Source: Deltaproteobacteria bacterium | GTDB lineage: Bacteria > Desulfobacterota > Binatia > JACPRU01 | NCBI GenBank assembly: GCA_016189835.1 | Contig: JACPRU010000040.1 | Location: 1,230-65,229, forward strand | Length of the DNA: 64,000 nt | Direction of reading: 5' to 3' | Part shown: one piece after another, positions 10,833-64,000 of the stretch | Numbering within the stretch: the first letter of the stretch is position 1 | Layout: every line of letters begins with the position of its first letter | Notes under the pieces: model-generated | Told to the model about the DNA's origin: nothing | Databases searched by the model: none | Seen by the model: the letters and a program-made list of their open reading frames with translations, nothing else | Position numbers and translations under genes: made by a program

Positions 10833-14497
<3,665 letters not shown>

Positions 14498-14513
<16 letters not shown>

Positions 14514-44114: not shown

Positions 44115-44128
44115 CGGGCCCGGCCGCG

Positions 44129-44488: not shown

Positions 44489-44602
44489 GCACCCTGCGGG
44501 GGCATCTCCGAGCTCGACGGCGAGGACCCCGCGGGTCGGCGCCAGGCGCCCGGCGGTGCCCCGCAGGGCGGCGCGCCGCCGGCGGCGTGACCGCTCTCGG
44601 CG

Positions 44603-47957: not shown

Positions 47958-48190
47958 CGGAACGGGACTCTTGTGACAGACTCCCTCCGTGAATTCCAGG
48001 CGGCGAGCGCGGGGGGACACTTGACGTTTTCCTCCGCGCTGCGATAAGCACGCCGGCGAAAAATTCCGGGATCCTTCCGCTGACGCGGTTTCAGGGACGA
48101 GGGGGAAAAACGACGGGTCGAGGCTAGCGAGCCGCCCTCGAGGCGGTCTCACTACGCGGTTCGGCAATCGCGGTCGTCGGGTGCAGGCTG

Positions 48191-48838
48191 GTGGCACAGA
48201 TCTTTTCCGAACGAATCAATCGACTTCCCCTGTTCCTCGGCGTCGGGGCGCCCCTCGGCTTGGTCGGCGCGATCGCGTTCGTGTGGTACTTCTTCTCCCC
48301 CTGGTACACGGACGTCGGTTACCAGCCGACGCAGCCCGTCCCGTACAGCCACCGCCTGCATGCGGGCGACATGGAGATCAACTGCCGCTACTGTCATGCG
48401 ATGGCGGAGATCTCGCCGGCGGCCGGCGTGCCGCCCACTCAGTCGTGCATGAACTGTCACACCCTGGCGATGAAGGACAGCCCGCGGCTGCAGCCGATTC
48501 GCGACAGCGCGGCGGATGGCCTTCCCATGCGCTGGGTGCGCGTGCACGAGCTGGCCGACTACGTCTACTTCGAGCACGCCTCGCACGTACGGGCGGGCGT
48601 GGGCTGCGTGTCGTGTCACGGCCGCATCGACCAGATGGACGTCGTGCGCGAGGAGAAGCCGCTCAGCATGAGCTGGTGCCTCGACTGTCACCGCGACCCC
48701 GCTCCGAATCTCCGGCCCGTGGATCAGGTGACGAACATGCGCTGGGTCCCGCCGCCGAATCATCCCGAGTGGGCGCTACGGACGATCCAGGAGCGCGGCA
48801 TCCAGCCGCCGGTCGACTGCTCGGGGTGCCATCGGTGA
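48191..48838 (+). CDS. actA: Alternative Complex III-type pentahaem cytochrome c (ActA)
   Basis: GTG start and an N-terminal TM. Five CxxCH motifs (CRYCH, CMNCH, CVSCH, CLDCH, CSGCH). QPVPYSHRLHAG...INCRYCH is typical of ActA. Confidence 0.85.
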   Translation: MAQIFSERINRLPLFLGVGAPLGLVGAIAFVWYFFSPWYTDVGYQPTQPVPYSHRLHAGDMEINCRYCHAMAEISPAAGVPPTQSCMNCHTLAMKDSPRLQPIRDSAADGLPMRWVRVHELADYVYFEHASHVRAGVGCVSCHGRIDQMDVVREEKPLSMSWCLDCHRDPAPNLRPVDQVTNMRWVPPPNHPEWALRTIQERGIQPPVDCSGCHR

Positions 48839-48929
48839 GCCAAGACTCCGCGACCCGGCGGCCGGCGAAGGGCGAGGAGCGGCCCCGGGACGGTGTTCCC
48901 GAGCGGCCGGAGCGCTCGCGGGGACGCGA

Positions 48930-51862
<2,933 letters not shown>

Positions 51863-51866
<4 letters not shown>

Positions 51867-52558
51867 AGGGGCACGCGAAGAAGGCGGCGCAAGAGGCTGC
51901 GGGGGGAACGGGTTTGCTTGGGACGGACTCGTCGCCGTCCACGGCGCAAACCCGTTCCCCCCGCAGCCGTGTCACCGGGCATCTGCTGATCGTAGTCCTC
52001 GGCGCCGTGCTCGCCGTCACCACGCTGGAGGGCTGCATGCGCGGCTGCGGCTCCTCGCGGCCGCCGATCCACCCGAACTACAGCATGTTCAACCAGCCGA
52101 AGTACCGCCCCTATGGCGCCAGCGCGTTCTTCTACGACGGAGCGGCGATGCGCCGGCCGGTGCCGGGCACCGTGGCCCGCGGCCACCTCGTCGAGGATCC
52201 GGTACTCGAGAGCGGCAAGAGCGCCGACGGCTCGCCGGTCGCCTCCTCGCCCGTGGCGGTGGACGAGGCGCTCGTCGACCGCGGCCGCGACCGCTACGGC
52301 ATCTATTGCCAGCCCTGCCACGACGAGCGCGGCGAGGGCAAAGGCATTCTCTTCCAGCGCGCCAAGGTGCCGACCGCGAACCTGCTCGACAAGCGCATCC
52401 GCGACCTGCCCGACGGCAGCCTGTTCGACACCATCACCAACGGCAAGGGGCTGATGGCGGGCTACCGCTATCCGATCCGCGCGCGCGACCGCTGGGCGAT
52501 CATCGCCTACGTGCGGAGCCTGGAGAAGGCGCAGGCGCAGAGGGAGGCCGCGCGGTGA
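51863..52558 (+). CDS. actE: ActE-like lipoprotein monohaem cytochrome c
   Basis: GTG 51863 overlaps the actB stop. Signal/lipobox-like LIVVLGAVLAVTTLEGC. MFNQPKYRPYGASAFFYDGAAMRRPVPGTVARG, CQPCH and RDRWAIIAYVRSLE match ActE. The first 35 codons are a palindromic element, so the start is uncertain. Confidence 0.7.
51895..51968. repeat. Perfect 23-bp inverted repeat with nested 6-bp inner hairpin
   Basis: GGCTGCGGGGGGAACGGGTTTGC (51895..51917) and its exact reverse complement (51946..51968). The 28-nt spacer contains GGACGG/CCGTCC (51921..51940). Confidence 0.9.
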
Positions 52559-54426
52559 ACCGTCGAGCGCTCCTCGGCATCGTCGGCGCGTTCCTGCTGC
52601 TCACCGCGGTGCTGCGCGTGTGGGTGGCGGTCAACGATCGGGCCTACCGGGCGCCGGTCTACTCCACCCAGGTGCAGCCGGTGCCGCGCGAGCAGGGCAT
52701 CGCCGATCAGCAGAAAGCGGCCGAAGCCAAGGCCAAGGCCAAGAAATACGAGGCGCCGACGTACCGTCAGTTTCCGTTCGTCGGCAGCCGCGTGGCGATC
52801 TGGGTGGTCGCCGAGCTGCACCTGATGTTCGCCGCCTTCGTGCTCGCCGTACCGATGTTCGCGTTCATCATCGAGGTGATCGGCTACGCGACCGGCGACA
52901 AGCGCTACGACCGGCTGGCCTTCGAGTTCACCAAGCTGCTCTCGACCTCGTTCTCGTTCACGGCGAGCTTCGGCGGCTTTCTGACCTTCATGCTGATCGC
53001 GCTCTACCCGGCGTTCACGAACTACCTGATGGAGGTCTTCTCGCCGACGTTCCTGCCCTACGTGCTGCTGTTCTTCGCCGAGGCGGGCTGCCTCTACAGC
53101 TACTACTACGGCTGGGGCAAGTTTCATCCGCTCGTCCACCTCGCGCTCGGCCTGGCGATCAACGTGGTCGGCACCCTGATCATGTTCATCGCCAACGCCT
53201 GGGCCTCGTTCATGATGACGCCGCAAGGCATCTCCGACTCCGGGGCGCTCGTCGATCTCTACGCCGCGTTCGACAACTTCACGTGGATGCCGATCAACAT
53301 CCACCGCTTCATCGGCAACATCGCCTTCGGCGGATCGGTGGCCGCGGCGTACGCGGCGTGGAAGTTCCTGCACGCCGAGACCGACGAGCAGCGCGCCCAC
53401 TACGACTGGATGGGCTACGTCGGCAACTTCGTCGCGATCAGCGCGTTCCTGCCGCTGCCGTTCGCCGGCTACTACCTCGCCGCGGAGATCTACGCCTACA
53501 ACCAGGCACTCGGCATCATGATGATGGGCGGCGCGTTCTCCTGGCTGTTCATCATCCAGGCCGTCTTGATCGGCAACCTGTTCCTCGCCGCCAACTACTA
53601 CCTGTGGCTCGGCATGGGCCGGGTCGAGGGTGTGCAGGCCTACCAGAAGTACGTCAAGTACCTGCTGGCGGCGATCGCCGTGTGCTTCGCGGTGTGGGCG
53701 ACGCCGCACTCGCTCATCGCCACCACCGCCGAGATCCGCGCGATGGGCGGAACGCTGCATCCGATGCTCGGCTACCTCGGCGTGATGTCGGCGAAGAACA
53801 CCGCGGTGAACGTGCTGATCCTCACCACGTACGTGAGCTTTCTCTTCTATCGCCGCACCGGAAAGCGGCCGACGGTGTCTTGGGCGAAGCTCGGCAACCT
53901 CGTGCAGTTCCTGATCTTCGCGGCCTCCACCGCGATCGTGATCTTCTACGGCATCTACGGCTACTTCGTGGAGGCGGCGGTGCGCATCGCCTTCTCGGTG
54001 CCGCAGGTGCTGTCGGTGCTGGTGGCGATGGTATTGATGACGGTGATCGACATCTTCCTCATGCGCGGCGCCCACGCCACGGGCGAGACCCACTGGGGCA
54101 AGATCCCGGCGGTCTCGCAGTACGTGCTGATCTTCATCGCCGTGACGTTCACCTGGCTCATGGGGCTGATGGGCTACGTCCGATCGGGCCTCCGCCAGCA
54201 CTGGCACGTGTACGGCGTGCTGGTGGATTCTTCGCCCGATGCCTTCACGCCCACGCTGGGATTCGCGGCCAACGTCGTCTCGGTCTGCGTGATCCTGTTC
54301 TTCGCGCTCATCGCGTTCGTGTTCTGGCTCGCCAGCCTGCACGACAAGAGGGATTGGGGGACGACGCAATCCGACGAGCCGGCCCACGGCGGGCACGCGC
54401 CGAAGAGGGTGTCGGCGGGCTCATGA
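52555..54426 (+). CDS. Cytochrome bd subunit I (CydA)-like polytopic membrane protein, no CydB partner
   Basis: 623 aa, GTGA overlap with actE. By eye it aligns to E. coli CydA at AELHLMFAAFVLAVPMF (H19 region), FFAEAG (E99 region), IANAWASFMM, NIHRFIGNIAFGG...AAW (H186 region) and GLRQHW (GRQPW region). It has a much shorter Q-loop and extra C-terminal TM helices. Confidence 0.6.
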   Translation: MNRRALLGIVGAFLLLTAVLRVWVAVNDRAYRAPVYSTQVQPVPREQGIADQQKAAEAKAKAKKYEAPTYRQFPFVGSRVAIWVVAELHLMFAAFVLAVPMFAFIIEVIGYATGDKRYDRLAFEFTKLLSTSFSFTASFGGFLTFMLIALYPAFTNYLMEVFSPTFLPYVLLFFAEAGCLYSYYYGWGKFHPLVHLALGLAINVVGTLIMFIANAWASFMMTPQGISDSGALVDLYAAFDNFTWMPINIHRFIGNIAFGGSVAAAYAAWKFLHAETDEQRAHYDWMGYVGNFVAISAFLPLPFAGYYLAAEIYAYNQALGIMMMGGAFSWLFIIQAVLIGNLFLAANYYLWLGMGRVEGVQAYQKYVKYLLAAIAVCFAVWATPHSLIATTAEIRAMGGTLHPMLGYLGVMSAKNTAVNVLILTTYVSFLFYRRTGKRPTVSWAKLGNLVQFLIFAASTAIVIFYGIYGYFVEAAVRIAFSVPQVLSVLVAMVLMTVIDIFLMRGAHATGETHWGKIPAVSQYVLIFIAVTFTWLMGLMGYVRSGLRQHWHVYGVLVDSSPDAFTPTLGFAANVVSVCVILFFALIAFVFWLASLHDKRDWGTTQSDEPAHGGHAPKRVSAGS

Positions 54427-54917
54427 GATCTCCGGTCGGCGTCAACGTGGTCCTGGTGGTGGCGGGCGCGACGCTCTTCTACACCTACGTCGGCCAGCTC
54501 GTGCCGCAGAAGGAGCTGCAGCCGCCGCCGAAGGTCGAGATCACCCAGGAGATGACGCCGGTACAGCTCGCCAAGGTCGGCGACGAGCTCGCGCGCGGCA
54601 AGGGCATGTGCCTCACCTGCCACACGGTCGGGCACAGCGGCGGGCCGCTCCGCTATCCCGACCTCGCCGGCGTGGCCGAGCGGGCCAAGACGCGCGTCGC
54701 GGGGCTCGATCAGCTGCACTACTTCGCGCAGTCGGTCTGCCAGCCGGACGCGTTCGTCGTCGCCGGCTTCGCGCCGGGCATGCCGGCCATCCACAGGCCG
54801 CCGATCGGGCTCTCCGACGAGGAGCTGCACGCGGTGGTCGCGTGGCTCCAGAGCCAGGGGGGGCAGGCGACGATCACCTTGAAGGAGAAGCTGCCGTACT
54901 GCGGAGGCCCCGGGTGA
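54423..54917 (+). CDS. Membrane-anchored monohaem cytochrome c
   Basis: 164 aa with an N-terminal TM and one CxxCH (CLTCH). ATGA overlap with the upstream gene. Confidence 0.7.
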   Translation: MRSPVGVNVVLVVAGATLFYTYVGQLVPQKELQPPPKVEITQEMTPVQLAKVGDELARGKGMCLTCHTVGHSGGPLRYPDLAGVAERAKTRVAGLDQLHYFAQSVCQPDAFVVAGFAPGMPAIHRPPIGLSDEELHAVVAWLQSQGGQATITLKEKLPYCGGPG

Positions 54918-54930
54918 GCGGAGACCGCGC

Positions 54931-55758
54931 ATGAAGCTCGCGATCGTCCTTGCCGTCGTCGCCGTGATGGTCGTGCTGCGCCTGGTGCGCGCCGGGCTGC
55001 TCGTGTGGCTCGCCGCCTGGTGGGTCGGCACGTACGCGGTGCTGCGCTACGGCTTCGTGACGCCGATTCCCGCTTCCGCCCTGCACATCTTCATGGCGAT
55101 CACGGCGCTCTCGCTGTTCGCCTACGCGACGTCGAGCCGCGAGCGGATGCGCGCGACCTACGAGCCGGTCCTCGCGTTCGCGAGCGAGAGCCGCTTCACG
55201 CTGCCGCTCGCGCTGGTGGCCGCGTCGATTCCCGGGGTCGTCGCCTGGAGCGTCTACCAGGGCCTGCAGCAGCCGCTCCAGCCGCCTTACTTCGGGCGCA
55301 CGGTCCACCCGTCGCCGCCCGCCGAGATCACGTCGCGCGGCGAGAAGGTCGATCTCGCGCGCGCCGCCAACCCCTTCCGCAATCTCGAGAAGACGGACGT
55401 CCAGGCGTTTCGCCGGCACGTCGAGAACGGCCGGCGGGTTTACTACCGCAACTGCTTCTTCTGTCACGGCGACGACCTCGGCGGCGCCGGGATGTACGCC
55501 CACGGCCTCGACCCGGTGCCCGCGAACTTCCTCGACTCGGGCGTGCTGCCGATGTTCCAGGAGTCGTTCTTCTTCTGGCGCATCGCCAAGGGCGGCCCGG
55601 GCATGCCCGACGAGGGCGCCCCCGGCGACTCGGCGATGCCCGAGTGGGAGCGCATGCTCAGCAACGAAGAGATGTGGGACGTGATCCTGTTCCTCTACGA
55701 CGACGCGGGCTACCGGCCGCGGGCGCTCGAGGCAGTCGGCGCCGAGGTGGCTCACTAG
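54931..55758 (+). CDS. Polytopic (about 4 TM) membrane protein with C-terminal monohaem cytochrome c domain
   Basis: 275 aa with one CxxCH (CFFCH), followed by MPEWERMLSNEEMWDVILFL, typical of class I cytochromes c. Confidence 0.7.
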   Translation: MKLAIVLAVVAVMVVLRLVRAGLLVWLAAWWVGTYAVLRYGFVTPIPASALHIFMAITALSLFAYATSSRERMRATYEPVLAFASESRFTLPLALVAASIPGVVAWSVYQGLQQPLQPPYFGRTVHPSPPAEITSRGEKVDLARAANPFRNLEKTDVQAFRRHVENGRRVYYRNCFFCHGDDLGGAGMYAHGLDPVPANFLDSGVLPMFQESFFFWRIAKGGPGMPDEGAPGDSAMPEWERMLSNEEMWDVILFLYDDAGYRPRALEAVGAEVAH

Positions 55759-57456
55759 ATGCCTCCGATTTCGCGACGCCACGAGGCCTCCTCCTGGGTG
55801 ACGCTCGCCCTGGCCCTGGCGGCGCTGCCGTGCTTCGCCGCGCCCGCGCCCGACCTCGGCACGGATCAGCAACGACAGGCGGGAAAGCCGCTCTACGACC
55901 GGCACTGTTCGCAGTGCCACGGCGAAAAGGGGGACGGCCTCGGCGTGGCGGCGCCGTTCCTCAGCCCCAAGCCCCGCGACTTCACCTCCGGCAAGTTCAA
56001 GATCCGCACCACGCCGAGCGGCGCACTGCCCACCACGCAGGATCTCAAGGCCATCATCCGCGCCGGGATGCCCTACACCGCGATGCCGGGCTGGCCGCAG
56101 TTCAACGACCGGCAGCTCACCGACGTCGCGTACTACGTGAAGTCGTTCGCCGCGGACTTCGCCGACCCCGATCGCCAGCCCGAGCCGATCCAGAGCCCGC
56201 CGGTGCCGGCCATCAGCGGCGAATCGATCGGCAGAGGCAAGAAGCTCTACGAGGAGCTCGGCTGCGCACGCTGCCACGGCGAGACGGGCCGCAGCGACGG
56301 CGTCGCGGCGCCGACGCTGACCGACGACTGGGGATACCTGATCCGCTCCGCCGACCTCACTCGGCGCTGGACGTTCCGCGGCGGCCCGACGCGCCAGGAA
56401 ATCTTCCGTGCATTCTCGACCGGCCTGAACGGTACGCCCATGCCTTCGTTCGTCGACGCGCTGACGGTCGAGCAGCGCTGGGATCTCGCCGACTTCGTCT
56501 ACTCGCTGTCGCCGAGGGACTCGCCGGAGTACGCGACGCTGCTCGTCGCCAAGAAGGTCGCACGCGAGCTGGACCTGGCCGAAGGGGCGAAGCTCTTCGA
56601 GGAAGCCGAGCCCGCCTACTTCCCGGTGATCGGCCAGATCATGCAGCCGGGGCGCGCGTTTCACCCGTCGTGCAACGGCATCGCCGTGCGCGCCGTCTAC
56701 AACGAGACCGACATCGCCTTCGAGCTGCGCTGGAACGACATGCGGGCGGAGGTCACGGGCAAGAACGGACCCGAGCTGGCGGTGGCGGCGGCCGAGGACG
56801 AGGGCGACGAGCCCGCCGCGGCGCCGCCGGCCGCTGAAGGTGGCGGCGGGTGGGGCGACGCGGAAGCCGCCGCGCCGGCGGCCGAGCCCGCCGCGGCGCC
56901 GGCCGACGTTTGGGGAGAAGGCGAAGCCGGCGCCGCGGCGTCTGCGGCCGTACCGCAGAGCGAATTCTCCGACGCCGTGGCCATCCAGTTCCCGGCCGAG
57001 AAGTCGCTGACGATCCGCAAGCCCTACTTCGTCTTCGGCGACAAGGGCAACGCCGTCAACCTCTGGTTCGTCGACCTCGCGAAGCCGGAGCCGGCGCTGT
57101 ACGTCGGCCGGGGCAGCGACTCCCTGGAGCCGCTCGGGCCCCGCGATCTGACGGTCACCCGCGGCTACGACAAGGGCGAATGGACCGTCGTCTTCAAGCG
57201 GCGGCTGCGCAGCCAGGGAGAGGTCACGTTCGAGGAGCAGGGCTTCCTGCCGATCGCCTTCTCGGTGTGGGACGGCCTCGCCGGCGAGCGGGGCAACAAG
57301 CGCGGCCTCACCAACTGGTGGACCGTCTATCTCTCGCCCGACGAGAAGCCGTCGCTCGTCCGCGAGATGGCGAAGTGGGGGGGGCTGGCGTTCGCGCTCG
57401 AAGTGGTGTTCATCGGCTGGGCACGCCGCCGCGCGCACAACTCGGCGGGATCCTGA
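55759..57456 (+). CDS. Dihaem cytochrome c fused to EB_dh-like (type II DMSO-reductase gamma-subunit-like) haem-b domain, C-terminal TM anchor
   Basis: 565 aa with a signal peptide and two CxxCH (CSQCH, CARCH). The C-terminal about 270 aa (AVRAVYNETDIAFELRWND...DAVAIQFP...NLWFVD...GEWTVVFKRRL...IAFSVWDG) resemble the ethylbenzene-dehydrogenase gamma/NxrC-type domain from memory. Terminal TM is GGLAFALEVVFIGW. Confidence 0.55.
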   Translation: MPPISRRHEASSWVTLALALAALPCFAAPAPDLGTDQQRQAGKPLYDRHCSQCHGEKGDGLGVAAPFLSPKPRDFTSGKFKIRTTPSGALPTTQDLKAIIRAGMPYTAMPGWPQFNDRQLTDVAYYVKSFAADFADPDRQPEPIQSPPVPAISGESIGRGKKLYEELGCARCHGETGRSDGVAAPTLTDDWGYLIRSADLTRRWTFRGGPTRQEIFRAFSTGLNGTPMPSFVDALTVEQRWDLADFVYSLSPRDSPEYATLLVAKKVARELDLAEGAKLFEEAEPAYFPVIGQIMQPGRAFHPSCNGIAVRAVYNETDIAFELRWNDMRAEVTGKNGPELAVAAAEDEGDEPAAAPPAAEGGGGWGDAEAAAPAAEPAAAPADVWGEGEAGAAASAAVPQSEFSDAVAIQFPAEKSLTIRKPYFVFGDKGNAVNLWFVDLAKPEPALYVGRGSDSLEPLGPRDLTVTRGYDKGEWTVVFKRRLRSQGEVTFEEQGFLPIAFSVWDGLAGERGNKRGLTNWWTVYLSPDEKPSLVREMAKWGGLAFALEVVFIGWARRRAHNSAGS

Positions 57457-57469
57457 CCGGGAGGCAGCG

Positions 57470-59494
57470 ATGTACAAGACCATCTACGTTCCGGTGGACA
57501 ACTCCGACTTCTCCAATCAGGCCGTTCGCCTGGCCATCGATCTCGGCAAGAGCTTCGGCTCGAAGATGGTGGGCTGCCACGTCTACGCGGCCAAGATGCA
57601 CGACTACCGCTTCAAGCAGATGGAGTACACGCTGCCCGCGGAGTACCTCGAGGAGACCGAGCTCGAGCGGCAGCGGAAGATCCACGACAGCCTGATCACC
57701 ATGGGCTTGAAGCTCATTTCCGACAGCTATCTCGCGTCGATGGAGCAGCAGTGCGGGGCGGCCGGCCTCGAGTTCGAGCCGCGCATGACGGACGGCAAGC
57801 ACTCGACCGAGATCGTCAAGGACCTCGCCGCGGGCGGTTACGACCTGGTCGTGCTCGGCGTGCTCGGCCTCGGCCGCGTGCGCGACAGTCAGGTGGGATC
57901 GGTTTGCGAGCGCGTGGTGCGTCACGCCAGGCAGGACGTGCTCGTGGTCAAGCAGTTGCCGAACGGGGACGGCGCCGCGCGCGACACGATCCTGGTCGGC
58001 ATCGACGGCAGCCCGCAGTCCTTCGGGGCGCTCTTGACGGCGACCGACCTCGCCAAGCGCTTCGGCAAGAAGGTCGAGGCGATCGCCGTCTACGATCCCT
58101 ACCTCCACTACACCGTGTTCAACGGCATCGTGAACGTGCTCAGCGAGAAGGCGGCCAAGGTCTTCCGCTTCGAGGAGCAGAACCAGCTGCATGAGGAGGT
58201 GATCGACACCGGGCTCGCGCAGATCTACCAGTCGCACCTCGAGGTGGCCGCGAAGATGGCGGTCGAGACCGGCTTCGAGATCCAGAAGACGCTGCTCGAC
58301 GGCAAGGCATTCCAGAAGGTGTTGAACCACGCCCGCAAGATCGATCCCTGGCTGCTGGTGGTCGGCCGCACGGGGATTCACGGCGTGAAGGACGAGACCG
58401 AGCTCGGCAGCAACGCGGAGAACCTGTTCCGCAGCTGCCCGTGCGACCTGCTGCTCACCACCCGGCTCGAGGTCCCCGAGCTCGACGTCAAGGCCGAGGA
58501 GTCGATCCGCTGGACGGCTGAGGCCGAGGAGCGCATGACCCGCGTGCCGCCGCTCGTGCAGGGGATCGCGCGCACCGCGATCTACCGCCTGGCGATCGAG
58601 AGGGGCCACAGCGTGATCACCAGCAGCCTGCTCGACGAGGCGATGGAGCGGTACATGCCGAAGGGCGCGAAGGCGACGACGCGGCTGGCCGAGAGCGTCG
58701 TGCTCGAGCACGCGAAGGACCGGGCGGTGTCGATCTGCAAGAAGTGCGGCGTGTCGGCGGCCGAGGCGAGCCCCGTCGCGTGCGCGGTCTGCGGCGGCGA
58801 CGCCTTCCACGTGATCTCGCCGGGAATGGTCGAGGAGATCATCGAGAGCGAGGGCGGAGCGCAGGCCGAGACCACCTACGACGGCCGCACGCTCACCTGG
58901 ACGCGCGAGGCCAAGCGGGCGTTGTGGACGATTCAGGACGGCTACCAGCGCCGTCGCACCAAGGCGCGGGTCGAGAAGGCGGCGCGTCTGAGGCGGTTCG
59001 AGGCCGTGAGCCTGGAGCTGGCCCGGGCGCTGATCGAGGAGGAGACCGGCGAGCCGCTGGTGCTGCCGCCGCGAGGCGCCGAGGCGCCCCCGCCGCCGGC
59101 CGAGACGCAGGACGGCAAGAAGCTCGTTGCCCGTGACGAGAAGCGCAACCCCTTGTTCTCCGCGCTCGACTGGCAGCCGGACGCGGTCATGCGGATCCTG
59201 CGCGTGCCGGCCGGGTTCATGCGCAACCGCACGCAGCAGAGGATCGAGGACCTGGCACGTGAGCGCGGCGCCGACGCGATCGACCTCGCGCTCGTCGAGG
59301 AGGGCATCGAGCAGGGCCGCCAGCTCATGGAAGAGATGATCCAGGAGTACAAGGCGAATCCGCAGGCCGCGCGCGCGACGACGACTCGCCCCGAACCGCC
59401 GCCGTCCGCCGCGGCTCCCGCTTCCGACGGTTTGCCGCTGAACGAGGTCGGCGTCATGGCGGTCATGGAAGCGAGGCGGGCCGGTAAGGCCTGA
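57470..59494 (+). CDS. Tandem universal stress protein (UspA x2) fused to zinc ribbon and three PCP_red-like domains
   Basis: 674 aa. Usp motifs (IYVPVDNS...GSVCERVVRHARQDVLVV; ILVGIDGS...LGSNAENLFRSCPCDLLL). CKKCG...CAVCG. Three W(T/Q)xEAxxxLxRVPxFV...ERG...-type domains at about 58505..58657, 58892..59041 and 59165..59329. Confidence 0.6.
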   Translation: MYKTIYVPVDNSDFSNQAVRLAIDLGKSFGSKMVGCHVYAAKMHDYRFKQMEYTLPAEYLEETELERQRKIHDSLITMGLKLISDSYLASMEQQCGAAGLEFEPRMTDGKHSTEIVKDLAAGGYDLVVLGVLGLGRVRDSQVGSVCERVVRHARQDVLVVKQLPNGDGAARDTILVGIDGSPQSFGALLTATDLAKRFGKKVEAIAVYDPYLHYTVFNGIVNVLSEKAAKVFRFEEQNQLHEEVIDTGLAQIYQSHLEVAAKMAVETGFEIQKTLLDGKAFQKVLNHARKIDPWLLVVGRTGIHGVKDETELGSNAENLFRSCPCDLLLTTRLEVPELDVKAEESIRWTAEAEERMTRVPPLVQGIARTAIYRLAIERGHSVITSSLLDEAMERYMPKGAKATTRLAESVVLEHAKDRAVSICKKCGVSAAEASPVACAVCGGDAFHVISPGMVEEIIESEGGAQAETTYDGRTLTWTREAKRALWTIQDGYQRRRTKARVEKAARLRRFEAVSLELARALIEEETGEPLVLPPRGAEAPPPPAETQDGKKLVARDEKRNPLFSALDWQPDAVMRILRVPAGFMRNRTQQRIEDLARERGADAIDLALVEEGIEQGRQLMEEMIQEYKANPQAARATTTRPEPPPSAAAPASDGLPLNEVGVMAVMEARRAGKA

Positions 59495-59586
59495 GAGCGG
59501 AGCGCGTTGTCACCTCTGCGGACCGTGCGACGCGTCTTCCGCCGGCGGCGGACACCGAGGGGTCGCCGGAGGTAACGGGCGCCTGC

Positions 59587-60426
59587 ATGTCGGGCTATCG
59601 CTTCTGCCGCACGGACGACATCCCCGCTCTGGTCGACGCCTACAACGACTGCTGGCTGCCGCACTTCGCCCCGCAGGCCCCGCTGACCGTCGACGCCTTC
59701 AAGCGCGAGGTTCGCGAGATCCATCTGTGGGCGTCGAGCTGCATGCTGGCGACCGAGGACGACCGGTCGATCGGCGTGCTGCTCGGCGCCAAGCGCGACG
59801 ACGCCAACTTGGTGCGGGCGATCGCCCTGCGGCCTGGCCACGAGCGCCGCGGTCATGGCCGGCACCTGCTCGATTCGCTGCGCCGCAAGGTCGCAATCCT
59901 CGGACCGCGGCGGCTGCTCGTCGAAGTGCCGGCGGAGTGGGGGGGCGTGCGGCGCTTCTTCGAGCGGTGCGGCTTCCACGCCGAGGCCCGCTACGTGGAT
60001 TTCGCGCACGCGGCGCCGCGGCGCGCGCCGGTGGCTCCGGCGGCGCTGGTTTCGGCGATCACCCTCGAGGAGCTGCGCGAAGCCGGGGCGTTCGACCCGC
60101 CTCCGGGTTTGCCCTGGGAGCGGTCCCCGCAAACGCTCGTCAACCGCAGTCGACAGATAGAGGGCCTGGCGGTGGCTTCCGACGTGCGCATCGAGGCCTA
60201 CCTGCTCCATCGCCGCGTCGGGGCCGGCAACGAGCTGCTCGCCGTGGGCGGCCCGCGGGCCGAGCTCTTGCATCTGCTGCTCGCCGGACTCTATGAACGG
60301 ACGAGCGGCCCGATCACGTTTCCCAAGGTGAGCGAGCGGGAGACGGCTCACGCCGCTCTGCGGGACCTCGGGTTCGAGTCCGTGCGCGAGCACGTCGGGT
60401 ATGCGGCCGAGCTGAGCGAATCGTGA
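59587..60426 (+). CDS. GNAT-family acetyltransferase-like protein
   Basis: 279 aa. IALRPGHERRGHGRHLLDSL (acetyl-CoA-binding R/QxxGxG-like block) and FFERCGF. Confidence 0.5.
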   Translation: MSGYRFCRTDDIPALVDAYNDCWLPHFAPQAPLTVDAFKREVREIHLWASSCMLATEDDRSIGVLLGAKRDDANLVRAIALRPGHERRGHGRHLLDSLRRKVAILGPRRLLVEVPAEWGGVRRFFERCGFHAEARYVDFAHAAPRRAPVAPAALVSAITLEELREAGAFDPPPGLPWERSPQTLVNRSRQIEGLAVASDVRIEAYLLHRRVGAGNELLAVGGPRAELLHLLLAGLYERTSGPITFPKVSERETAHAALRDLGFESVREHVGYAAELSES

Positions 60427-61292
60427 AGAGCTACTTCGACATCGCCGGCGACGGCGGCTCGCGCGTTCTCGAGCAGGTCCGGGCCAAGCAGTCGCGCATC
60501 GCCGCGGCGCTCGCGGGCGTGCGGCGCATGGTGGCGGTCGGCTCCGGCAAGGGCGGCGTCGGCAAGAGCACGCTCACCCTGCAGCTCGCCCACGCGCTGC
60601 GCGAGGACGGCGCCTCGGTCGCGATCCTCGACGCCGACCTGAACGGTCCCAGCCAGGCGCGCATGACCGGGCTCGGCTCGGTGGCGCCGGTACCGGGGCC
60701 CGACGGGCTCGTCCTGCCGCGCACCGCCGCGGGCATCGGCGTGGTGTCGATGGGCCTCTTCGTCCCCGAGTCCGCGGCGCTCGACTTCGAGAGCGTCGCC
60801 GCCGGGGACAGCTACGTGTGGCGGGCGACCAAGGAGTTCGCGGTGCTCGGCGATCTGCTCGCCGGAGTCGCCTGGGGCCCGCTCGACTTCCTGCTCGTGG
60901 ACCTGCCGCCCGGGGCGGAGCGCACCGTGCAGTACGCCGAGTTCTTCGGCGCCGCCGCCGCGCTCGTGCTCGTCACCTTGCCCTCGGATCTCTCTCGCGG
61001 CGTGGTCGCGCGCTCGGTAGCGGGGCTCCGCCGGGCGCCGAATCGAGTGCTCGGTTACGTGGAGAACATGAAGGGCTACTGCTGCAGCGAGTGCGGCTCG
61101 GTCCGTCCGCTGTTCGCCGAGTCGTCCGCGATCGATCTCGGCATCCCCTGTCTCGGCGCGGTGCCGTTCGATCCCGCGCTCGCCGCCGCCTGCGACCGCG
61201 GCGAGCCGCTGCCCGCAGCGGCCGCCGGCCCGGCGTGGCCTGCGGTTCGTTCCGTGGCCGCGGCGATCCGCGGCGCACTGGAGGCGTCATGA
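60423..61292 (+). CDS. Mrp/NBP35/ApbC-family P-loop ATPase (Fe-S cluster carrier)
   Basis: GTG start overlapping the upstream stop. VGSGKGGVGKST, DADLNGPS, VENMKGYCCSECG. Confidence 0.85.
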   Translation: MKSYFDIAGDGGSRVLEQVRAKQSRIAAALAGVRRMVAVGSGKGGVGKSTLTLQLAHALREDGASVAILDADLNGPSQARMTGLGSVAPVPGPDGLVLPRTAAGIGVVSMGLFVPESAALDFESVAAGDSYVWRATKEFAVLGDLLAGVAWGPLDFLLVDLPPGAERTVQYAEFFGAAAALVLVTLPSDLSRGVVARSVAGLRRAPNRVLGYVENMKGYCCSECGSVRPLFAESSAIDLGIPCLGAVPFDPALAAACDRGEPLPAAAAGPAWPAVRSVAAAIRGALEAS

Positions 61293-61702
61293 AGTTTCTC
61301 TGCGTGCTGTGCGATCAGCCGATGAAGCTCGTCGAGGTCGCGCCGCCGGATCGCGGCGCGCTCAGCGTGCTCTACGAGTGCCCCGAGTGCGCGCACCGCA
61401 TCGCCATGCTCACCAACCCGTTCGAGACGCAGATGGTGACCTCGCTCGGCGTCGAGATCGGCCCGGGCGGCGAGAAGACCGAGTCGAAGTGCCCGTTCTC
61501 GGCGATGGTGCCGGGCGCGGGCGCGCCCGGCGCCGAGAGCGGCGTGACCTGGACCGCGAGCGCGCTCCGGCGCCTCGAGCGGATCCCCGAGTTCGTGCGG
61601 CCGATGGCGCGCGGCGGCATCGAGCGCTTCGCACGCGAGCGCGGCCTCAGCGAGGTCGACGAGGCGGTGCTCGACGAGGCGAAGAGCTTCTTCGGCATGT
61701 AG
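61289..61702 (+). CDS. Zinc-ribbon + PCP_red-like domain protein
   Basis: 137 aa, ATGA overlap. CVLCD...CPEC ribbon. The C-terminal VTWTASALRRLERIPEFVRPMARGGIERFARERGLSEVDEAVLDEAK strongly resembles the ChlB/BchB C-terminal (PCP_red) domain. Confidence 0.6.
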   Translation: MKFLCVLCDQPMKLVEVAPPDRGALSVLYECPECAHRIAMLTNPFETQMVTSLGVEIGPGGEKTESKCPFSAMVPGAGAPGAESGVTWTASALRRLERIPEFVRPMARGGIERFARERGLSEVDEAVLDEAKSFFGM

Positions 61703-63043
61703 GTGGAGACCCGGGATTCGCCGCCCGTCTTCCGATCGGGAACCGACGTGGACGCCTCCTTCGCACGACCGTACGTCATCTCCTGGAACCTGACGTATCG
61801 CTGCAACCTGGCCTGCGAGCACTGCTACCTCGACGCCGGCGGCAAGCCCGAGGTCGCCGCCCCCGCCTTCGCGGACCGCAGCGAGCTATCGACCGAGGAA
61901 TGCCTGCGCGTCGCCGACGAGATCGCCGCCTTCGCCCCGGACTGCCTGCTGATCCTGACGGGCGGGGAGCCGCTGCTGCGGCGCGACATCCTGGAGATCG
62001 TCCGCCACGCCGCGGCCCGGGGGCTGTGGGTGGTGGTGGGCACCAACGGCGTGAAGATCACCGAGAACCTCGCGGAGATCCTGCGCCGCGAGGGAGCCCG
62101 CGGCCTGTCGCTCTCGCTCGACGCGCTGGACCCGGAGCGGCACGACCGCTTCCGCCGCGTGCGCGGCGCGTGGCGCAACACCGTGGAGGGCGCCAAGATC
62201 CTCGCGCGCGCGGGCCTGCCGTTCATCGTGCAGACCACCGTCGCCCGCCACAACGTCGGCGAGCTCGCCGCCATCGCCGCGTTCGCCTGCGAAGAGCTCG
62301 CGGCGAGCGTGTGGAACCTCTTCTTCCTGGTTCCGACCGGCCGCGGGGCGCACGTCTCCGACCTCGACGCCGCCGCCTACGACGGCGTGCTCGCCGAGCT
62401 GCAACGGCTGCAGCGCCGCTTCGCCGGGCGCATGCTGGTCAACGCGAAGTGCGCGCCGCACTACGTCCGGCTGCTGCAGGGCGAAGCGGGGCAGGGGGCG
62501 GTGGTCAAGGGCTACGCCGGCGGCGCCGGCGGCTGTCCCGCGGGCACCCACTACCTCGGCATCCGTCCGAACGGCGACGTCACGCCGTGCCCCTACCTGC
62601 CGCTGTTCGGCGGAACGTTGAAGCGCTCGACCCTGCGCGAGATCTGGAGCGATTCGGATCCGTTCGTGCGCATCCGCGACCGCGCGCGGCTCGGCGGCCG
62701 CTGCGGCGCTTGCGAGCTGAACGCGGCCTGCGGCGGCTGTCGCGCACGCGCCTTCGGCATGACCGGCGACGTGCTCGCCGAGGACCCGCTGTGCACGCAT
62801 CAGCCCGGAACCTTCGGCCGGCCGGCGGCCCCGGACGTCGAGTACGGCGGGGCGGTCGAGACGACGCTGCCGTGGGACGCGGCGGCGCGCGAGCGCATGC
62901 AGCAGGTCCCCGCCTTCGTGCGCGGCATGGTCAGCCGCCGCGTCGAGGCCTACTGCCGCGAGCAGGGGCTGCCGCGCGTCACCGAGCAGGTGCTCGGCGA
63001 GATCCGCGCGCGCATGCCGACGCCGAAGCTGTTCGGCAGATGA
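61703..63043 (+). CDS. Radical SAM/SPASM enzyme (AhbD/NirJ-like haem-modifying type) with C-terminal PCP_red-like domain
   Basis: GTG start immediately after the upstream stop. CNLACEHC (CxxxCxxC), GGEPLL, SPASM Cys clusters (CPAGTHYLGIRPNGDVTPCPY; CGACELNAACGGCRARA). C-terminal LPWDAAARERMQQVPAFVRGMVSRRVEAYCREQGLPRV. Confidence 0.85.
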   Translation: METRDSPPVFRSGTDVDASFARPYVISWNLTYRCNLACEHCYLDAGGKPEVAAPAFADRSELSTEECLRVADEIAAFAPDCLLILTGGEPLLRRDILEIVRHAAARGLWVVVGTNGVKITENLAEILRREGARGLSLSLDALDPERHDRFRRVRGAWRNTVEGAKILARAGLPFIVQTTVARHNVGELAAIAAFACEELAASVWNLFFLVPTGRGAHVSDLDAAAYDGVLAELQRLQRRFAGRMLVNAKCAPHYVRLLQGEAGQGAVVKGYAGGAGGCPAGTHYLGIRPNGDVTPCPYLPLFGGTLKRSTLREIWSDSDPFVRIRDRARLGGRCGACELNAACGGCRARAFGMTGDVLAEDPLCTHQPGTFGRPAAPDVEYGGAVETTLPWDAAARERMQQVPAFVRGMVSRRVEAYCREQGLPRVTEQVLGEIRARMPTPKLFGR

Positions 63044-63059
63044 CGGGGCGCTCCCGCGA

Positions 63060-63662
63060 ATGGCGTCGCGCCTGATCCTCCCGGTTCACTACGACTTCTC
63101 GTCGACGATCTGCTTCGTCGCCCATCGCGTGCTCGAGCGCATGCACGACCAGCTCGAGGAGATGGGCGTCGAGCTGCGCTGGCGCCCGCTCGACCTGGTG
63201 GCGCTCAGCGGCTGGCGCCGCGGCGCAGAGGTCGCTGGCCCGCGGCGCGACAACGCGTTGCGCGTGGCGAGCGAGCTCGACGTCGCGGTGCGCATGCCGG
63301 CGGTGCTGCTCGATTCGCGGCGGGCGCACGCGGTGGCGCTCGCGCTCGCGGACGGACCGCGCGAGGCGGCGTGGCGGGAGCGCGTGTGGAGCGCGGTCTT
63401 CGAGGAGGGCCGTGACATCGGCGAGGAGGGAGAGATCGAGCGGCTCGCCGCCGATCTGACGATCGATCTTCGCGCCGTGGAAGGCGCGGGCGACCTCGCG
63501 CGCCTGGAAGCCGAGACCGATGCCGCGCGCGAGGCCGAGGTGACCGGCGTCCCCACCTTCCACGTCGGCTTCCCGCTCGGCGGCATCCAGGACCCGCACA
63601 CCATGAAGCTGCTGTTCCAGCGCTGGGTCGACCGGCAGCGCCGGGTGCGCTCGGGCGAGTGA
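63060..63662 (+). CDS. DsbA-like thioredoxin-fold protein (FrnE/HCCA-isomerase type) with SxxC in place of CxxC
   Basis: 200 aa. YDFSSTICFVAH at the active-site position and a C-terminal EAEVTGVPTFHVG typical of DSBA-like proteins. Confidence 0.55.
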   Translation: MASRLILPVHYDFSSTICFVAHRVLERMHDQLEEMGVELRWRPLDLVALSGWRRGAEVAGPRRDNALRVASELDVAVRMPAVLLDSRRAHAVALALADGPREAAWRERVWSAVFEEGRDIGEEGEIERLAADLTIDLRAVEGAGDLARLEAETDAAREAEVTGVPTFHVGFPLGGIQDPHTMKLLFQRWVDRQRRVRSGE

Positions 63663-63702
63663 ACCGCGCCGGCCGTCGACGCGACCGTCGCGGGCGGCGG
63701 CT

Positions 63703-64000
63703 TCAGCGAAGCGCGCGTTGCAGCGCCGGCCGCGCCTCGAGGCGGGCGAGGTAGGCGAGCAGGTTGGGGGTGCGCGCGTCGAGCACCTCGAACCGTCGCG
63801 CGATCAGCAGCGTCACGCCCATCATCACGTCGGCGGCGGAGAATTCGCCGCCGAGCAGGTAGTCCTTGCCCTCGAGCGAGCGCTCGGCGACGGCGAACGT
63901 CGCGGCGGCGCGGCCGCGGGCGTCCTCGACCACCGCGGCGATGCGCTCCGCCTCGGGCTTGAAGATCGTGTGGCGAACGATGTCGCCGAGCGGCGGCATC
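63703..64000 (-). CDS. Glutathione S-transferase, C-terminal part (N-terminus beyond window edge)
   Basis: KDYLLGGEFSAADVMMGVTL...LAYLARLEARPALQRA is typical of the GST C-terminal domain. Confidence 0.6.
   Translation of the reverse strand, partial: MPPLGDIVRHTIFKPEAERIAAVVEDARGRAAATFAVAERSLEGKDYLLGGEFSAADVMMGVTLLIARRFEVLDARTPNLLAYLARLEARPALQRALR

Follow-up and report, generated by a model that had tools for sequence, protein, structure and literature searches.

A conserved PCP_red-domain module around an AhbD-like radical SAM enzyme: a possible haem-finishing and hand-off system linked to respiratory haem proteins

Why should a domain of protochlorophyllide reductase recur five times, in three genes, beside a cytochrome cluster of a non-phototrophic bacterium? 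The window, a stretch of 64,000 nucleotides from contig JACPRU010000040.1 of a Deltaproteobacteria bacterium (Binatia, assembly GCA_016189835.1), holds such an arrangement at positions 57470-63043. The answer that we tentatively favour is an oxygen-independent, AhbD-type module for finishing haem and handing it on, tied to respiratory haem proteins and not strictly dedicated to the complex encoded upstream. The module is widely conserved and no description of it was found in the literature searched; the cytochrome bd-like oxidases that it may serve are little understood.

The five genes lie on the forward strand and encode a tandem-Usp fusion (57470..59494, 674 aa, in the order tandem-Usp, PCP_red, Zn-ribbon, PCP_red, PCP_red), a GNAT acetyltransferase (59587..60426, 279 aa, matching Acetyltransf_1 and Acetyltransf_7), an Mrp/NBP35/ApbC-type P-loop Fe-S carrier ATPase (60423..61292, 289 aa, PF10609 at 1e-52), a small Zn-ribbon–PCP_red protein (61289..61702, 137 aa, with CVLC...CPEC) and an AhbD-like radical SAM/SPASM enzyme with a C-terminal PCP_red domain (61703..63043, 446 aa, or 431 aa from 61748). 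Coordinate arithmetic reproduced the spacings given in a preliminary description of this DNA, namely gaps of 13 and 92 nt, two 4-nt overlaps, a 0-nt junction and a gap of 16 nt. The 0-nt junction stands with GTG 61703 as start, but is lost if the NCBI model, an identical protein of 431 aa starting at GTG 61748, is right. The block of 14 genes described there has to be revised on both counts, as 13 genes were counted in 48191-63662 and parts of this supposed single unit are separable in other genomes. None of the five module proteins contains CxxCH or transmembrane segments, save two weak hydropathy matches in Mrp, which argues for a cytoplasmic module.

The five segments were scanned one by one with the Pfam profile PF08369 (PCP_red, gathering score 32.5 bits), and the domain was recovered. 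Four copies pass: the first and third of the Usp fusion (58505..58657, 49.2 bits; 59165..59329, 37.5 bits), that of the Zn-ribbon protein (61541..61699, 63.4 bits) and that at the C-terminus of the radical SAM enzyme (62864..63016, 53.2 bits). The second copy of the Usp fusion (58892..59041), which contains the very basic stretch YQRRRTKARVEKAAR, stays below the gathering score with 14.6 bits (E 0.034, profile positions 1-41 of 45). The same columns are occupied by the middle copies of homologues in eight other lineages, at 16-39 bits on a purpose-built PCP_red profile, and it is predicted to fold into a short helix, a long helix and a further helix, as the other copies are. By sequence and predicted structure we take it to be a diverged copy, in register with significant copies of homologues, and the claim of five copies in three genes is upheld in this sense. 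Compared with solved structures, the PCP_red copy of the Zn-ribbon protein hits the C-terminal end of ChlB/BchB chains (2xdq_B, E 3e-8), and alignment with two BchB/ChlB sequences displays the motif W-T-x2-A-x3-L-x2-(I/V)P-x-FVR...E-x2-ARE(R/Q)G, indicating sequence homology of PCP_red here to the C-terminal domain of BchB/ChlB.

Homologues of the Usp fusion (Pfam Usp 1e-40, PCP_red 7e-22; AF2 model with a mean pLDDT of 76.8) number more than 4,000, and the top 120 align over the full length at 63-100% identity. The two Usp domains of the fusion (57470..58459, aa 1-161 and 173-330) carry the nucleotide-binding motifs G-2x-G-9x-GS at aa 130 and G-2x-G-10x-GS at aa 299, invariant among 49 homologues, and the modelled pair resembles the folds of the ATP-binding tandem Usps TTHA0350, Rv2623 and UspE. 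All four cysteines of the Zn-ribbon between PCP_red copies 1 and 2 (58736..58792, CKKC...CAVC, motifs at aa 423 and 438) are likewise invariant among the 49 homologues. The Mrp protein has the motifs GKGGVGKS and CSEC and falls below the MrpORP and ApbC equivalog cut-offs.

The radical SAM protein matches Radical_SAM, SPASM and PCP_red in Pfam, with the radical SAM core at about 61787-62278 and the auxiliary-cluster cysteines at 62450-62794, upstream of PCP_red; its AF2 model has a mean pLDDT of 84. CNLACEHC at aa 34 is followed by eight conserved cysteines between aa 250 and 364, and the CxxxCxxC motif and the eight SPASM-region cysteines are invariant throughout the clade. NCBIfam was searched with the window protein, with three distant members of its clade and with four loci of other phyla, and each time the AhbD models TIGR04545 and TIGR04055 came first (nearly full length, 278-349 bits), followed by TIGR04053 and then by models mostly of tetrapyrrole radical SAM enzymes (NirJ, AhbC, NirJ1). 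These matches place the enzyme within the AhbD/NirJ/AhbC clan, in agreement with the tie to tetrapyrrole chemistry suggested earlier. The window enzyme scores 294 bits on TIGR04545 against a cut-off of 500, and its nearest relatives without PCP_red, from which its clade is separate, score 331-470 bits on AhbD. On sequence grounds the enzyme has AhbD as its best match, yet below the curated cut-off, and belongs to a separate clade marked by C-terminal PCP_red domains, of which distant members carry one to four fused copies. Two operons (loci L027 and L030) each hold two paralogues of the enzyme and one clade member is a natural fusion with a TIGR04053 radical SAM protein, a hint of more than one chemical step.

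The comparison took in 86 related loci, drawn from at least 11 phyla, with 10 kb as the neighbourhood. In 60 of them, in at least 10 phyla, the radical SAM–PCP_red gene has the Usp–PCP_red gene as its direct neighbour, and these two form the conserved core; PCP_red copies average about 3.4 per locus. Mrp (40/86) and the Zn-ribbon–PCP_red gene (38/86, nearly always directly 3' of Mrp) are frequent partners, although no Mrp gene lies within 10 kb in any locus of Nitrospira, Nitrospina, Alphaproteobacteria or anammox bacteria. GNAT is a lineage-specific accessory gene, found in 17 loci that all belong to Binatia, Acidobacteriota or close relatives. The DsbA-like gene, counted as a block member in the preliminary description, drops out: it is missing from all 86 related loci, and its product has one cysteine and no CxxC.

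Upstream of the module, Pfam matches together with CxxCH and transmembrane counts define an OR-N2-type cytochrome bd-like cluster (48191..57456, forward strand) encoding ActA-like (five haems) and ActB-like proteins, a CydA-like membrane protein, three cytochromes c and a dihaem one that bears an EB_dh domain. It resembles the OR-N2 operons of Murali et al. (bioRxiv 10.1101/2021.01.16.426971) in its CydA-like subunit without quinol site, its several cytochromes c and its EbdC-like subunit. The term "radical SAM" was not found in the main text or supplements of that study, and compared with the operons described there the linkage to the module appears new. This linkage is seen again in other genomes: the module adjoins a CydA-like and cytochrome c cluster of OR-N2 type in 27 of the 86 loci (Binatia, Acidobacteriota, Gemmatimonadota, Rhodothermales, Bacteroidota, an alphaproteobacterial MAG and an anammox MAG), with shuffled gene order, and CydA-like adjacency recurs on two further contigs. 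The core pair also occurs without a cytochrome cluster within 10 kb, in 21 of 21 Nitrospira and 10 of 10 Poribacteria loci, in Nitrospina and in most anammox loci, and none of three Rokubacteria/Methylomirabilota loci has a CydA-like gene within that distance. In some Acidobacteriota neither the Usp gene nor the cytochrome cluster is next to the Mrp/Zn-ribbon/radical SAM trio, which in some lies beside COX/ACIII genes only, and in one Binatia genome about 7 kb of unrelated genes lie between.

Other haem genes recur near the module. In the window, a HemY-type porphyrinogen oxidase (44603-46084, TIGR00562, 220 bits) and ferrochelatase HemH (46024-47082, TIGR00109, 217 bits), both above cut-off, with matches in Pfam as well, and on the reverse strand, diverge from the block; a Sco1/SenC gene separates them from it. 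In four loci (L017, L077, L083, L088) HemY is found within the module or immediately behind it, and HemH lies beside the module in L077 as in the window. A HemJ/CopD-like membrane protein gene is present in 31 loci, Nitrospira loci among them, COX1 in 22 of 86, HmuY and CcmH in L091, and a Rieske/cytochrome b cluster next to the module in Scalindua; ahbABC genes do not recur among the neighbours. A module dedicated to the upstream haem complex, as first proposed, is not what this distribution describes. Wide occurrence without cytochrome neighbours had been named as one observation that would count against that proposal, and the outcome is divided, because the core pair does occur without the cluster and its neighbours include other haem genes, while 27 loci have a CydA-like cluster.

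The haem-finishing reading is favoured because AhbD models rank first, the cysteines are invariant, PCP_red is homologous to a BchB/ChlB domain, and late haem-synthesis genes and haem-protein complexes adjoin the module. It is in line with the report that AhbD serves coproporphyrin-pathway bacteria without other Ahb enzymes (PMC13564367). The enzyme, with one predicted SAM cluster and two predicted auxiliary [4Fe-4S] clusters, would most likely catalyse the O2-independent oxidative decarboxylation of propionate side chains of a coproporphyrin-type iron tetrapyrrole to vinyl groups (coproheme to haem b), a step that would come after HemY and HemH. Its C-terminal PCP_red, a basic three-helix unit whose other known hosts are the tetrapyrrole enzymes DPOR and COR, may cap or hold the tetrapyrrole, and the copies on the tandem-Usp and Zn-ribbon proteins may take over substrate or product for onward passing. 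The Usp pair could provide nucleotide-dependent control, Mrp could load or repair the three Fe-S clusters, and GNAT would be a lineage-specific add-on. Membrane respiratory complexes would be the main recipients of the haem, first among them the co-encoded OR-N2 cytochrome bd-like complex.

Several observations sit less well with haem finishing. The TIGR04545 score is well short of its cut-off and the clade is separate from its nearest non-PCP_red relatives; canonical AhbD works without Usp, Mrp or PCP_red partners; and there are the paired paralogues and the TIGR04053 fusion. Bacteroidota and Alphaproteobacteria normally make haem via the protoporphyrin route, so that an extra haem b synthase would seem redundant in their loci. 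Moreover, Gms, an AhbD homologue of similar identity set apart solely by an extra domain, acts on lipids (PMC11214058); similarity alone therefore leaves the substrate of the window enzyme unfixed.

A second reading, close to that of the preliminary description, is dedicated cofactor maturation for OR-N cytochrome bd-like oxidases, either of a non-standard haem (e.g. a partly decarboxylated or tailored coproheme derivative) or by haem insertion specific to the CydA-like subunit, with PCP_red proteins as carriers. Direct adjacency to CydA-like and cytochrome c clusters, found with varying gene order in eight or more lineages and again on the two unrelated contigs, speaks for it, as do the distinctness of the clade from AhbD, the alphaproteobacterial islands with their own HemY beside the module (in L077 also HemH), and the operons with two paralogues or a double radical SAM fusion. 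All 11 phyla with the clade fall among the 27 reported to carry OR-N, although co-occurrence at phylum level is coarse. The loci of Nitrospira, Poribacteria, Rokubacteria/Methylomirabilota, Nitrospina and most anammox bacteria without a CydA-like gene, the Scalindua neighbourhood and the acidobacterial trios beside COX/ACIII genes only weigh against it, and we consider it rather unlikely. Improbable, in our view, is a SPASM maturase that modifies or cross-links a cytochrome subunit or a PCP_red protein, with PCP_red serving recognition or docking like RRE domains in RiPP maturases. The closest solved folds are indeed those of the peptide-modifying PqqE, SkfB, SuiB and CteB, but this ranking is uncontested since the PDB holds no AhbD/NirJ structure; a small protein gene lies directly 5' of the enzyme in 38 of 86 loci, but no short precursor-like gene is conserved across loci. 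Peptide-maturase families match at about 100-165 bits, far below AhbD, NirJ and AhbC, and the other known context of PCP_red is tetrapyrrole enzymes.

We find it quite improbable that the module delivers electrons in an ATP-driven manner as in DPOR, with an Mrp dimer and its bridging [4Fe-4S] cluster as a BchL/NifH-like reductant of the radical SAM cluster and PCP_red as the Mrp docking site instead of a tetrapyrrole binder. BchL and Mrp share the SIMIBI P-loop fold, and Mrp combines a deviant Walker A with CxxC motifs and nearly always precedes the Zn-ribbon–PCP_red gene; however, it is missing from the four groups named above, we know of no Mrp/NBP35 protein that acts as a reductase, and in DPOR the PCP_red domain is not known as the docking surface for BchL. 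A chance or purely regulatory association, in which a stress regulator (the Usp fusion) and an unrelated housekeeping protein (the radical SAM enzyme) carry the same domain without a common role, is strongly disfavoured and barely credible: Usp proteins in general are stress proteins, and in Nitrospira marina they increase when oxygen is low (PMC8115632), but the adjacency of the core pair across phyla and the recurrence of the rare PCP_red on all partners, or in extra copies on the enzyme itself in loci that lack the partners, stand against it.

Among known systems, the C-terminal domain of DPOR BchB/ChlB shares with PCP_red sequence homology, the three-helix pattern and the conserved W, P, FVR and ARE(R/Q)G positions; the domain also exists as free small proteins (PDB 2kru, 2l09). 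In contrast to DPOR, the nitrogenase-like catalytic domain is missing here, the hosts are non-phototrophs, and PCP_red shares its polypeptide with a radical SAM enzyme, a Usp pair or a Zn ribbon, where its role would be that of a carrier. AhbD (NirJ2), a radical SAM enzyme, acts as haem b synthase in the sirohaem-dependent pathway and in some coproporphyrin-dependent ones. Across the full catalytic core no curated family matches better, and AhbD shares CxxxCxxC, the SPASM-region cysteines for two auxiliary clusters and the tetrapyrrole substrate class; homologues of the window protein carry the JGI label "AdoMet-dependent heme synthase". The window enzyme differs in its lower score and separate clade, in the C-terminal PCP_red domains of that clade and in its conserved partners (Usp–PCP_red, Zn-ribbon–PCP_red and Mrp), and its activity is predicted. 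NifB–NifX/NafY likewise unites a radical SAM enzyme with a small carrier domain that also occurs on separate proteins handing the product on, NifX-type domains trafficking FeMo-co precursors on NifB and as free proteins (PMC13474568). Folds and cofactor are unrelated, and as a model for PCP_red this system is an analogy only. HemW, a radical-SAM-like haem chaperone for respiratory enzymes of the membrane, is a radical SAM family protein devoted to haem supply for respiratory complexes, a role like the one proposed for the module. It is described as a haem-binding radical SAM enzyme of the HemN-like subfamily (PMC13495026). HemW is, however, a HemN paralogue without SPASM domain, whereas the window enzyme retains every cluster cysteine expected of a catalyst.

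The module consists of five closely packed genes on the plus strand (57470-63043), which encode a tandem-Usp fusion of 674 aa (57470-59494), a GNAT protein (59587-60426), an Mrp/NBP35-type ATPase (60423-61292), a zinc-ribbon protein of 137 aa (61289-61702) and a radical SAM/SPASM enzyme (61703-63043). The intergenic spacings given in the preliminary description agree with the gene coordinates, but the block that it counted as 14 genes (48191-63662) contains 13. The 0-nt junction upstream of the radical SAM gene depends on the choice between two in-frame GTG start candidates, 61703 and 61748: it holds only with GTG 61703, whereas a start at 61748, implied by the 431-aa NCBI model of the identical protein, leaves a 45-nt gap. 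A scan for promoters and terminators gave no more sites than shuffled sequence and none within the intergenic gaps of the block, and nothing in Rfam matched over 44000-64000. The five module proteins have no haem c motif and no transmembrane segments, except for two weak hydropathy matches in Mrp, which makes the module cytoplasmic. The DsbA-like gene downstream (63060-63662) is not conserved beside the module, with a counterpart in 0 of 86 related loci. Its product shows a DSBA-like fold match with a single cysteine and no active-site CxxC, which rules it out as a classical disulfide oxidoreductase.

Three of the module genes share a repeated motif that had been assigned to PCP_red (PF08369), the C-terminal domain of the DPOR subunit BchB/ChlB. 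Pfam indeed recovers PF08369 in all three, and the motif is visible in an alignment with two BchB/ChlB sequences. When scanned singly, the five segments scored, in gene order, 49.2, 14.6, 37.5, 63.4 and 53.2 bits for a gathering score of 32.5 bits: four copies stand on their own (37.5-63.4 bits) and only the middle copy of the Usp fusion fails (14.6 bits). We used our own PCP_red profile, built from the radical SAM clade, on the middle copies of Usp-fusion homologues from Acidobacteriota, Poribacteria, Nitrospira, Rhodothermales, Bacteroidota, Rokubacteria and Chloroflexota. They scored 16-39 bits, and the window's middle copy shares alignment columns with these copies, which include significant matches. 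It also displays the short-helix/long-helix/helix pattern of the other copies in the AF2 model, the three-helix PCP_red unit being seen in the models of both the Usp fusion and the radical SAM enzyme. The PCP_red of the zinc-ribbon protein matched the solved ChlB/BchB C-terminus (2xdq_B, E 3e-8) as well as the free-standing domains 2kru and 2l09. The nitrogenase-like catalytic domains of DPOR BchB/ChlB were not found upstream of PCP_red, and matches to BchB models were restricted to their last ~55-70 positions (19-44 bits vs cut-offs of 490-912). In the DPOR crystal structures of 2010, the BchB C-terminal domain reportedly sits like a lid on the other half's pigment pocket; the DPOR reviews that we searched describe no role for it. 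The middle copy of the Usp fusion (58940-58990; aa 491-507) bears a run of basic residues (R494, R495, R496, K498, R500, K503 and R506), which is invariant in 49 homologues and could bind carboxylates, for example haem propionates.

Besides CNLACEHC at aa 34, the radical SAM enzyme has eight cysteines that are invariant (C250, C278, C296, C334, C337, C343, C346 and C364); together they fit one SAM cluster and two auxiliary [4Fe-4S] clusters. The enzyme was modelled by AF2 with good confidence (pLDDT 84, pTM 0.84). Fold searches returned the SPASM enzymes PqqE, SkfB, SuiB and CteB as generic matches only, and no AhbD or NirJ structure was among the matches of the PDB sequence search. The best NCBIfam matches were the two AhbD models TIGR04545 (294 bits) and TIGR04055 (279 bits), then TIGR04053 (261 bits), followed mostly by other tetrapyrrole radical SAMs such as NirJ, AhbC and NirJ1, all of them below the curated cut-offs (500, 500 and 395 bits for the first three). 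The same ranking was obtained for distant family members and for loci of other phyla (278-349 bits). A search of 1.8 billion cluster representatives yielded two tiers of matches: relatives whose alignment extends across the PCP_red region, mostly with at least ~37-47% identity, and below them AhbD-like proteins of ~330-380 aa that end before it. When a neighbour-joining tree was computed on the catalytic core alone, the proteins that bear PCP_red all fell into one clade, which was observed directly and includes three members without detectable PCP_red. Ten representatives of the tree neighbours, nine of them outside the clade, scored 289-470 bits on AhbD; the sampled neighbours without PCP_red scored 331-470 bits, one passing TIGR04053. 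The clade structure and the sub-cut-off scores indicate that the enzyme lies outside the curated AhbD equivalog and represents, as judged from its sequence, a distinct sister group of AhbD-like proteins. Its annotation is inconsistent ('radical SAM protein' at NCBI, 'AdoMet-dependent heme synthase' at JGI). Why the distinction from AhbD matters is illustrated by Gms, an enzyme that crosslinks lipids: it shares 36% identity with Methanosarcina AhbD and is set apart by an extra domain (PMC11214058). The extra domain found here, PCP_red, has its other known occurrences in tetrapyrrole enzymes and so speaks for a tetrapyrrole substrate.

A natural fusion was encountered in P0392, a protein encoded on a further contig, where the radical SAM-PCP_red unit is joined to a second radical SAM unit whose score, 477 bits, exceeds the TIGR04053 cut-off. 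Upstream of the P0392 gene are a smaller CydA-like gene, a cytochrome c gene and a Usp-PCP_red gene. A TP_methylase match in P0392 was rejected as a sirohaem link: it is sub-threshold, has no significant stretch and falls in the second radical SAM unit.

In the Usp fusion, two stretches matched Pfam Usp (1e-40). The motif G-2x-G-9x-GS is exact in domain 1 (aa 130) and recurs in domain 2 (aa 299) with a 10-residue spacer, and both nucleotide-binding motifs are invariant in 49 homologues. By Foldseek, the pair has the fold of the ATP-binding tandem Usps TTHA0350, Rv2623 and UspE (3ab8, E 2e-16). Behind it come a PCP_red copy, a CxxC...CxxC zinc ribbon, the very basic PCP_red and a third PCP_red. 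The Mrp protein (PF10609, 1e-52) has a deviant Walker A motif, GKGGVGKS, and a C-terminal CxxC motif, and remains under the equivalog cut-offs of MrpORP (162 vs 450 bits) and ApbC (124 vs 348 bits).

We compared 86 non-redundant loci, each with up to 10 kb per side, obtained from exact-protein look-ups and a scan of species-representative genomes; their ORFs were assigned with phmmer searches against the window proteins and with the PCP_red profile. The clade comprises thousands of sequences from Binatia, Acidobacteriota, Gemmatimonadota, Poribacteria, Nitrospirota, Nitrospinota, anammox and other Planctomycetota, Methylomirabilota/Rokubacteria, Rhodothermales and other Bacteroidota, Chloroflexota, and alpha- and zetaproteobacterial MAGs. 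Neighbours were counted directly. Usp-PCP_red was present in 60 of the 86 loci, Mrp in 40, zinc-ribbon-PCP_red in 38 and GNAT in 17, the latter only in Binatia, Acidobacteriota and close relatives; an EB_dh cytochrome c was found in 28, a CydA-like protein in 27 and COX1 in 22. The loci contain on average ~3.4 PCP_red copies. Where the Usp fusion is lacking, the enzyme itself tends to bear more of them; it has two or three in anammox bacteria and up to four in other lineages, and in a zetaproteobacterial MAG a separate four-copy PCP_red ORF adjoins it. The system seems to require several PCP_red units, in cis or in trans. At ~9890-13210, the contig of L009 (CAYYWP010000053.1) mirrors itself perfectly about the end of the radical SAM gene, every gene being repeated on the opposite strand with identical scores, and looks like a hairpin assembly artefact. 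L013 (CAYNUO010000021.1), titled 'uncultured Bifidobacteriaceae bacterium', contains the complete OR-N2/Usp/GNAT/Mrp/radical SAM/COX/ACIII arrangement; as this arrangement is typical of Acidobacteriota, the contig is probably mis-binned or mislabelled.

The genes upstream of the module (48191-57456, plus strand) fit a cytochrome bd-like operon of the OR-N2 type, described as having a CydA-like subunit without quinol site, several cytochromes c and an EbdC-like subunit (bioRxiv 10.1101/2021.01.16.426971). They include cytochrome c genes and an EB_dh domain. The CydA-like protein matched PF01654 (Cyt_bd_oxida_I) in its N-terminal part only (profile positions 2-239 of 418) and shows, by a rough count, thirteen hydropathy segments vs the 14 helices reported. 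The main text and supplements of the OR-N2 paper mention no radical SAM gene. The published list of 27 OR-N-carrying phyla includes all 11 phyla in which we detected the clade. With ZnR for the zinc-ribbon protein and rSAM for the radical SAM enzyme, the order is cytochromes-Usp-GNAT-Mrp-ZnR-rSAM in Binatia and Acidobacteriota, Mrp-ZnR-Usp-rSAM-CydA-like-cytochromes-COX in Gemmatimonadota, CydA-like-cytochromes-rSAM...Usp-Mrp-ZnR in Bacteroidota and Rhodothermales, and CydA-like-cytochromes-Usp-rSAM-HemY in a Rhodospirillaceae MAG; two further contigs show CydA-like-cyt c-...-Usp-PCP_red-double rSAM (that of P0392) and CydA-like-five cytochromes c-Usp-CBS-rSAM. Since adjacency is kept while gene order varies among phyla, the linkage of the module to the cytochrome cluster is real and old. 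In two Vicinamibacterales loci, a 44%-identical radical SAM-PCP_red paralogue directly follows the cytochrome cluster (L027, 9995-11302; L030, 9857-11290); a second, window-like copy starts in L027 (15493-15930) after Mrp and the zinc-ribbon gene, and L030 ends sooner.

This linkage has its limits. All 21 Nitrospira loci consist of Usp-rSAM-HemJ/CopD-like and nothing more of the module or the cytochromes, Poribacteria have Usp...Mrp-ZnR-HemJ/CopD-like-rSAM-small PCP_red protein, Nitrospina loci hold the radical SAM enzyme by itself, and most anammox loci have no haem-protein neighbour within 10 kb per side. In Scalindua the radical SAM gene is divergent from a Rieske/cytochrome b cluster. In several Acidobacteriota the Mrp-ZnR-rSAM trio lies away from the Usp gene and the cytochrome cluster and faces a COX/ACIII operon only, and in one Binatia genome ~7 kb of unrelated genes separate this trio from the Usp-GNAT pair and the cytochromes.

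Genes of haem synthesis also occur nearby. In the window, a HemY-type porphyrinogen oxidase, a ferrochelatase and a Sco1/SenC copper chaperone are encoded divergently just upstream of the cytochrome block (44603-47700, minus strand). With HemY and HemH, the two enzymes preceding coproheme decarboxylation are neighbours of the module; the NCBIfam names of these two proteins do not split CgoX from PgoX or CpfC from PpfC. HemY lies inside the module or directly after it in 4 of the 86 loci (L017, L077, L083 and L088) and HemH is a neighbour in one (L077), as in the window together with HemY; CtaB is another haem-gene neighbour. No ahbABC-like family recurred among the module neighbours in the compared loci. 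A HemJ/CopD-like membrane protein of ~165 aa is found in 31 of the 86 loci (Nitrospira 21/21, Poribacteria 10/10), where it adjoins the radical SAM gene (e.g. L056:11230-11814, L028:9403-9942); it scored 21 bits with UPF0093 (HemJ) and 30 bits with CopD, each below cut-off. At L091 (6137-10685), genes for a DUF420-like protein, Usp-PCP_red, a radical SAM enzyme with several PCP_red copies and an HmuY-like haem-binding protein stand together, with CcmH upstream. The remaining part of the window (1-44000) encodes ordinary metabolism, and the ten proteins scanned there included no further haem genes; in this part are a B12-dependent methionine synthase (within 9456-14510), three acyl-CoA dehydrogenases, a family III CoA-transferase, a PAS histidine kinase, an alanine dehydrogenase/PNT-type protein and a V-ATPase subunit I-like protein, among others.

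It is probable, in our view, that these genes form a radical SAM module that processes tetrapyrroles and is tied to respiratory haem proteins. The complete mechanism that we favour over its rivals, combining AhbD-type haem finishing, PCP_red carriers, clusters from Mrp and nucleotide coupling through Usp, is tentative, with slightly less than even odds as a whole; for substrate, reaction, carrier role and destination it states what we infer. Acting after HemY and HemH, the enzyme would decarboxylate the propionates of a coproporphyrin-type iron tetrapyrrole oxidatively and without O2, in the manner of AhbD. Its basic three-helix PCP_red would hold or cap the tetrapyrrole, and through their own PCP_red copies the Usp fusion and the zinc-ribbon protein would receive substrate or product and pass it on. 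Mrp would supply Fe-S clusters, and the Usp pair would link the process to nucleotide state.

The main alternative, which we consider somewhat unlikely, is that the module makes or inserts a special haem for OR-N oxidases. It comes near the preliminary description, which read PCP_red as a shared docking or tetrapyrrole-handling module and the block as dedicated cofactor maturation for the upstream haem complex. It is favoured by the adjacency across phyla, the separation of the clade from AhbD, islands that bring a HemY of their own in phyla where the protoporphyrin route is the norm, the two paralogues per operon in L027 and L030, and the fusion with a TIGR04053 radical SAM, suggesting more than one chemical step. 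We regard as unlikely its more specific form, in which the enzyme and its PCP_red carriers would make or insert a novel coproheme-derived haem as the active-site cofactor of OR-N oxidases, putative terminal oxidases of Nitrospira and Nitrospina included, and PCP_red would be a family of general tetrapyrrole-carrier domains reaching far outside chlorophyll synthesis. What the neighbourhoods have in common is haem and the respiratory complexes that contain it, and not just the OR-N2 complex. Less likely are a peptide-modifying role of this AhbD-related enzyme, BchL-like electron donation by Mrp, and a mere coincidence of genes that stay adjacent across phyla.

Searches of the literature on PCP_red/PF08369/IPR013580 and on AhbD in Nitrospira, anammox bacteria and Planctomycetes turned up no description of the module; haem goes unmentioned in the Nitrospira moscoviensis model paper, and the anammox papers mention nirJ only where linked to nirS. 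Taken singly, the parts (AhbD-like radical SAM, PCP_red, Usp and Mrp) are of known kinds; no searchable paper describes the clade, the fusion that defines it, the partner proteins or the OR-N2 linkage. PF08369 is among the Pfam families of a genome pre-screen for phototrophy (PMC12815261). It is unsafe as a marker of this trait because it is common in non-phototrophs through the present module, and screens that use it could be inflated by them.

The clade spans environmentally important groups, including key nitrogen-cycle and soil bacteria, and the module offers a route to two questions, how haem is finished in its hosts and what bd-like oxidases contain. If the enzyme is their terminal haem synthase, it would close a gap in the haem pathway with a multi-protein, carrier-assisted AhbD step. 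If it serves OR-N bd-like oxidases, it would open their cofactor content and assembly to direct experiment, as in the respiratory chains of nitrite oxidisers. AhbD itself works in coproporphyrin-pathway bacteria without other Ahb enzymes (PMC13564367), and the carrier role that we propose for PCP_red would resemble that of the NifX-type domains, which occur both on NifB and on free proteins (PMC13474568).
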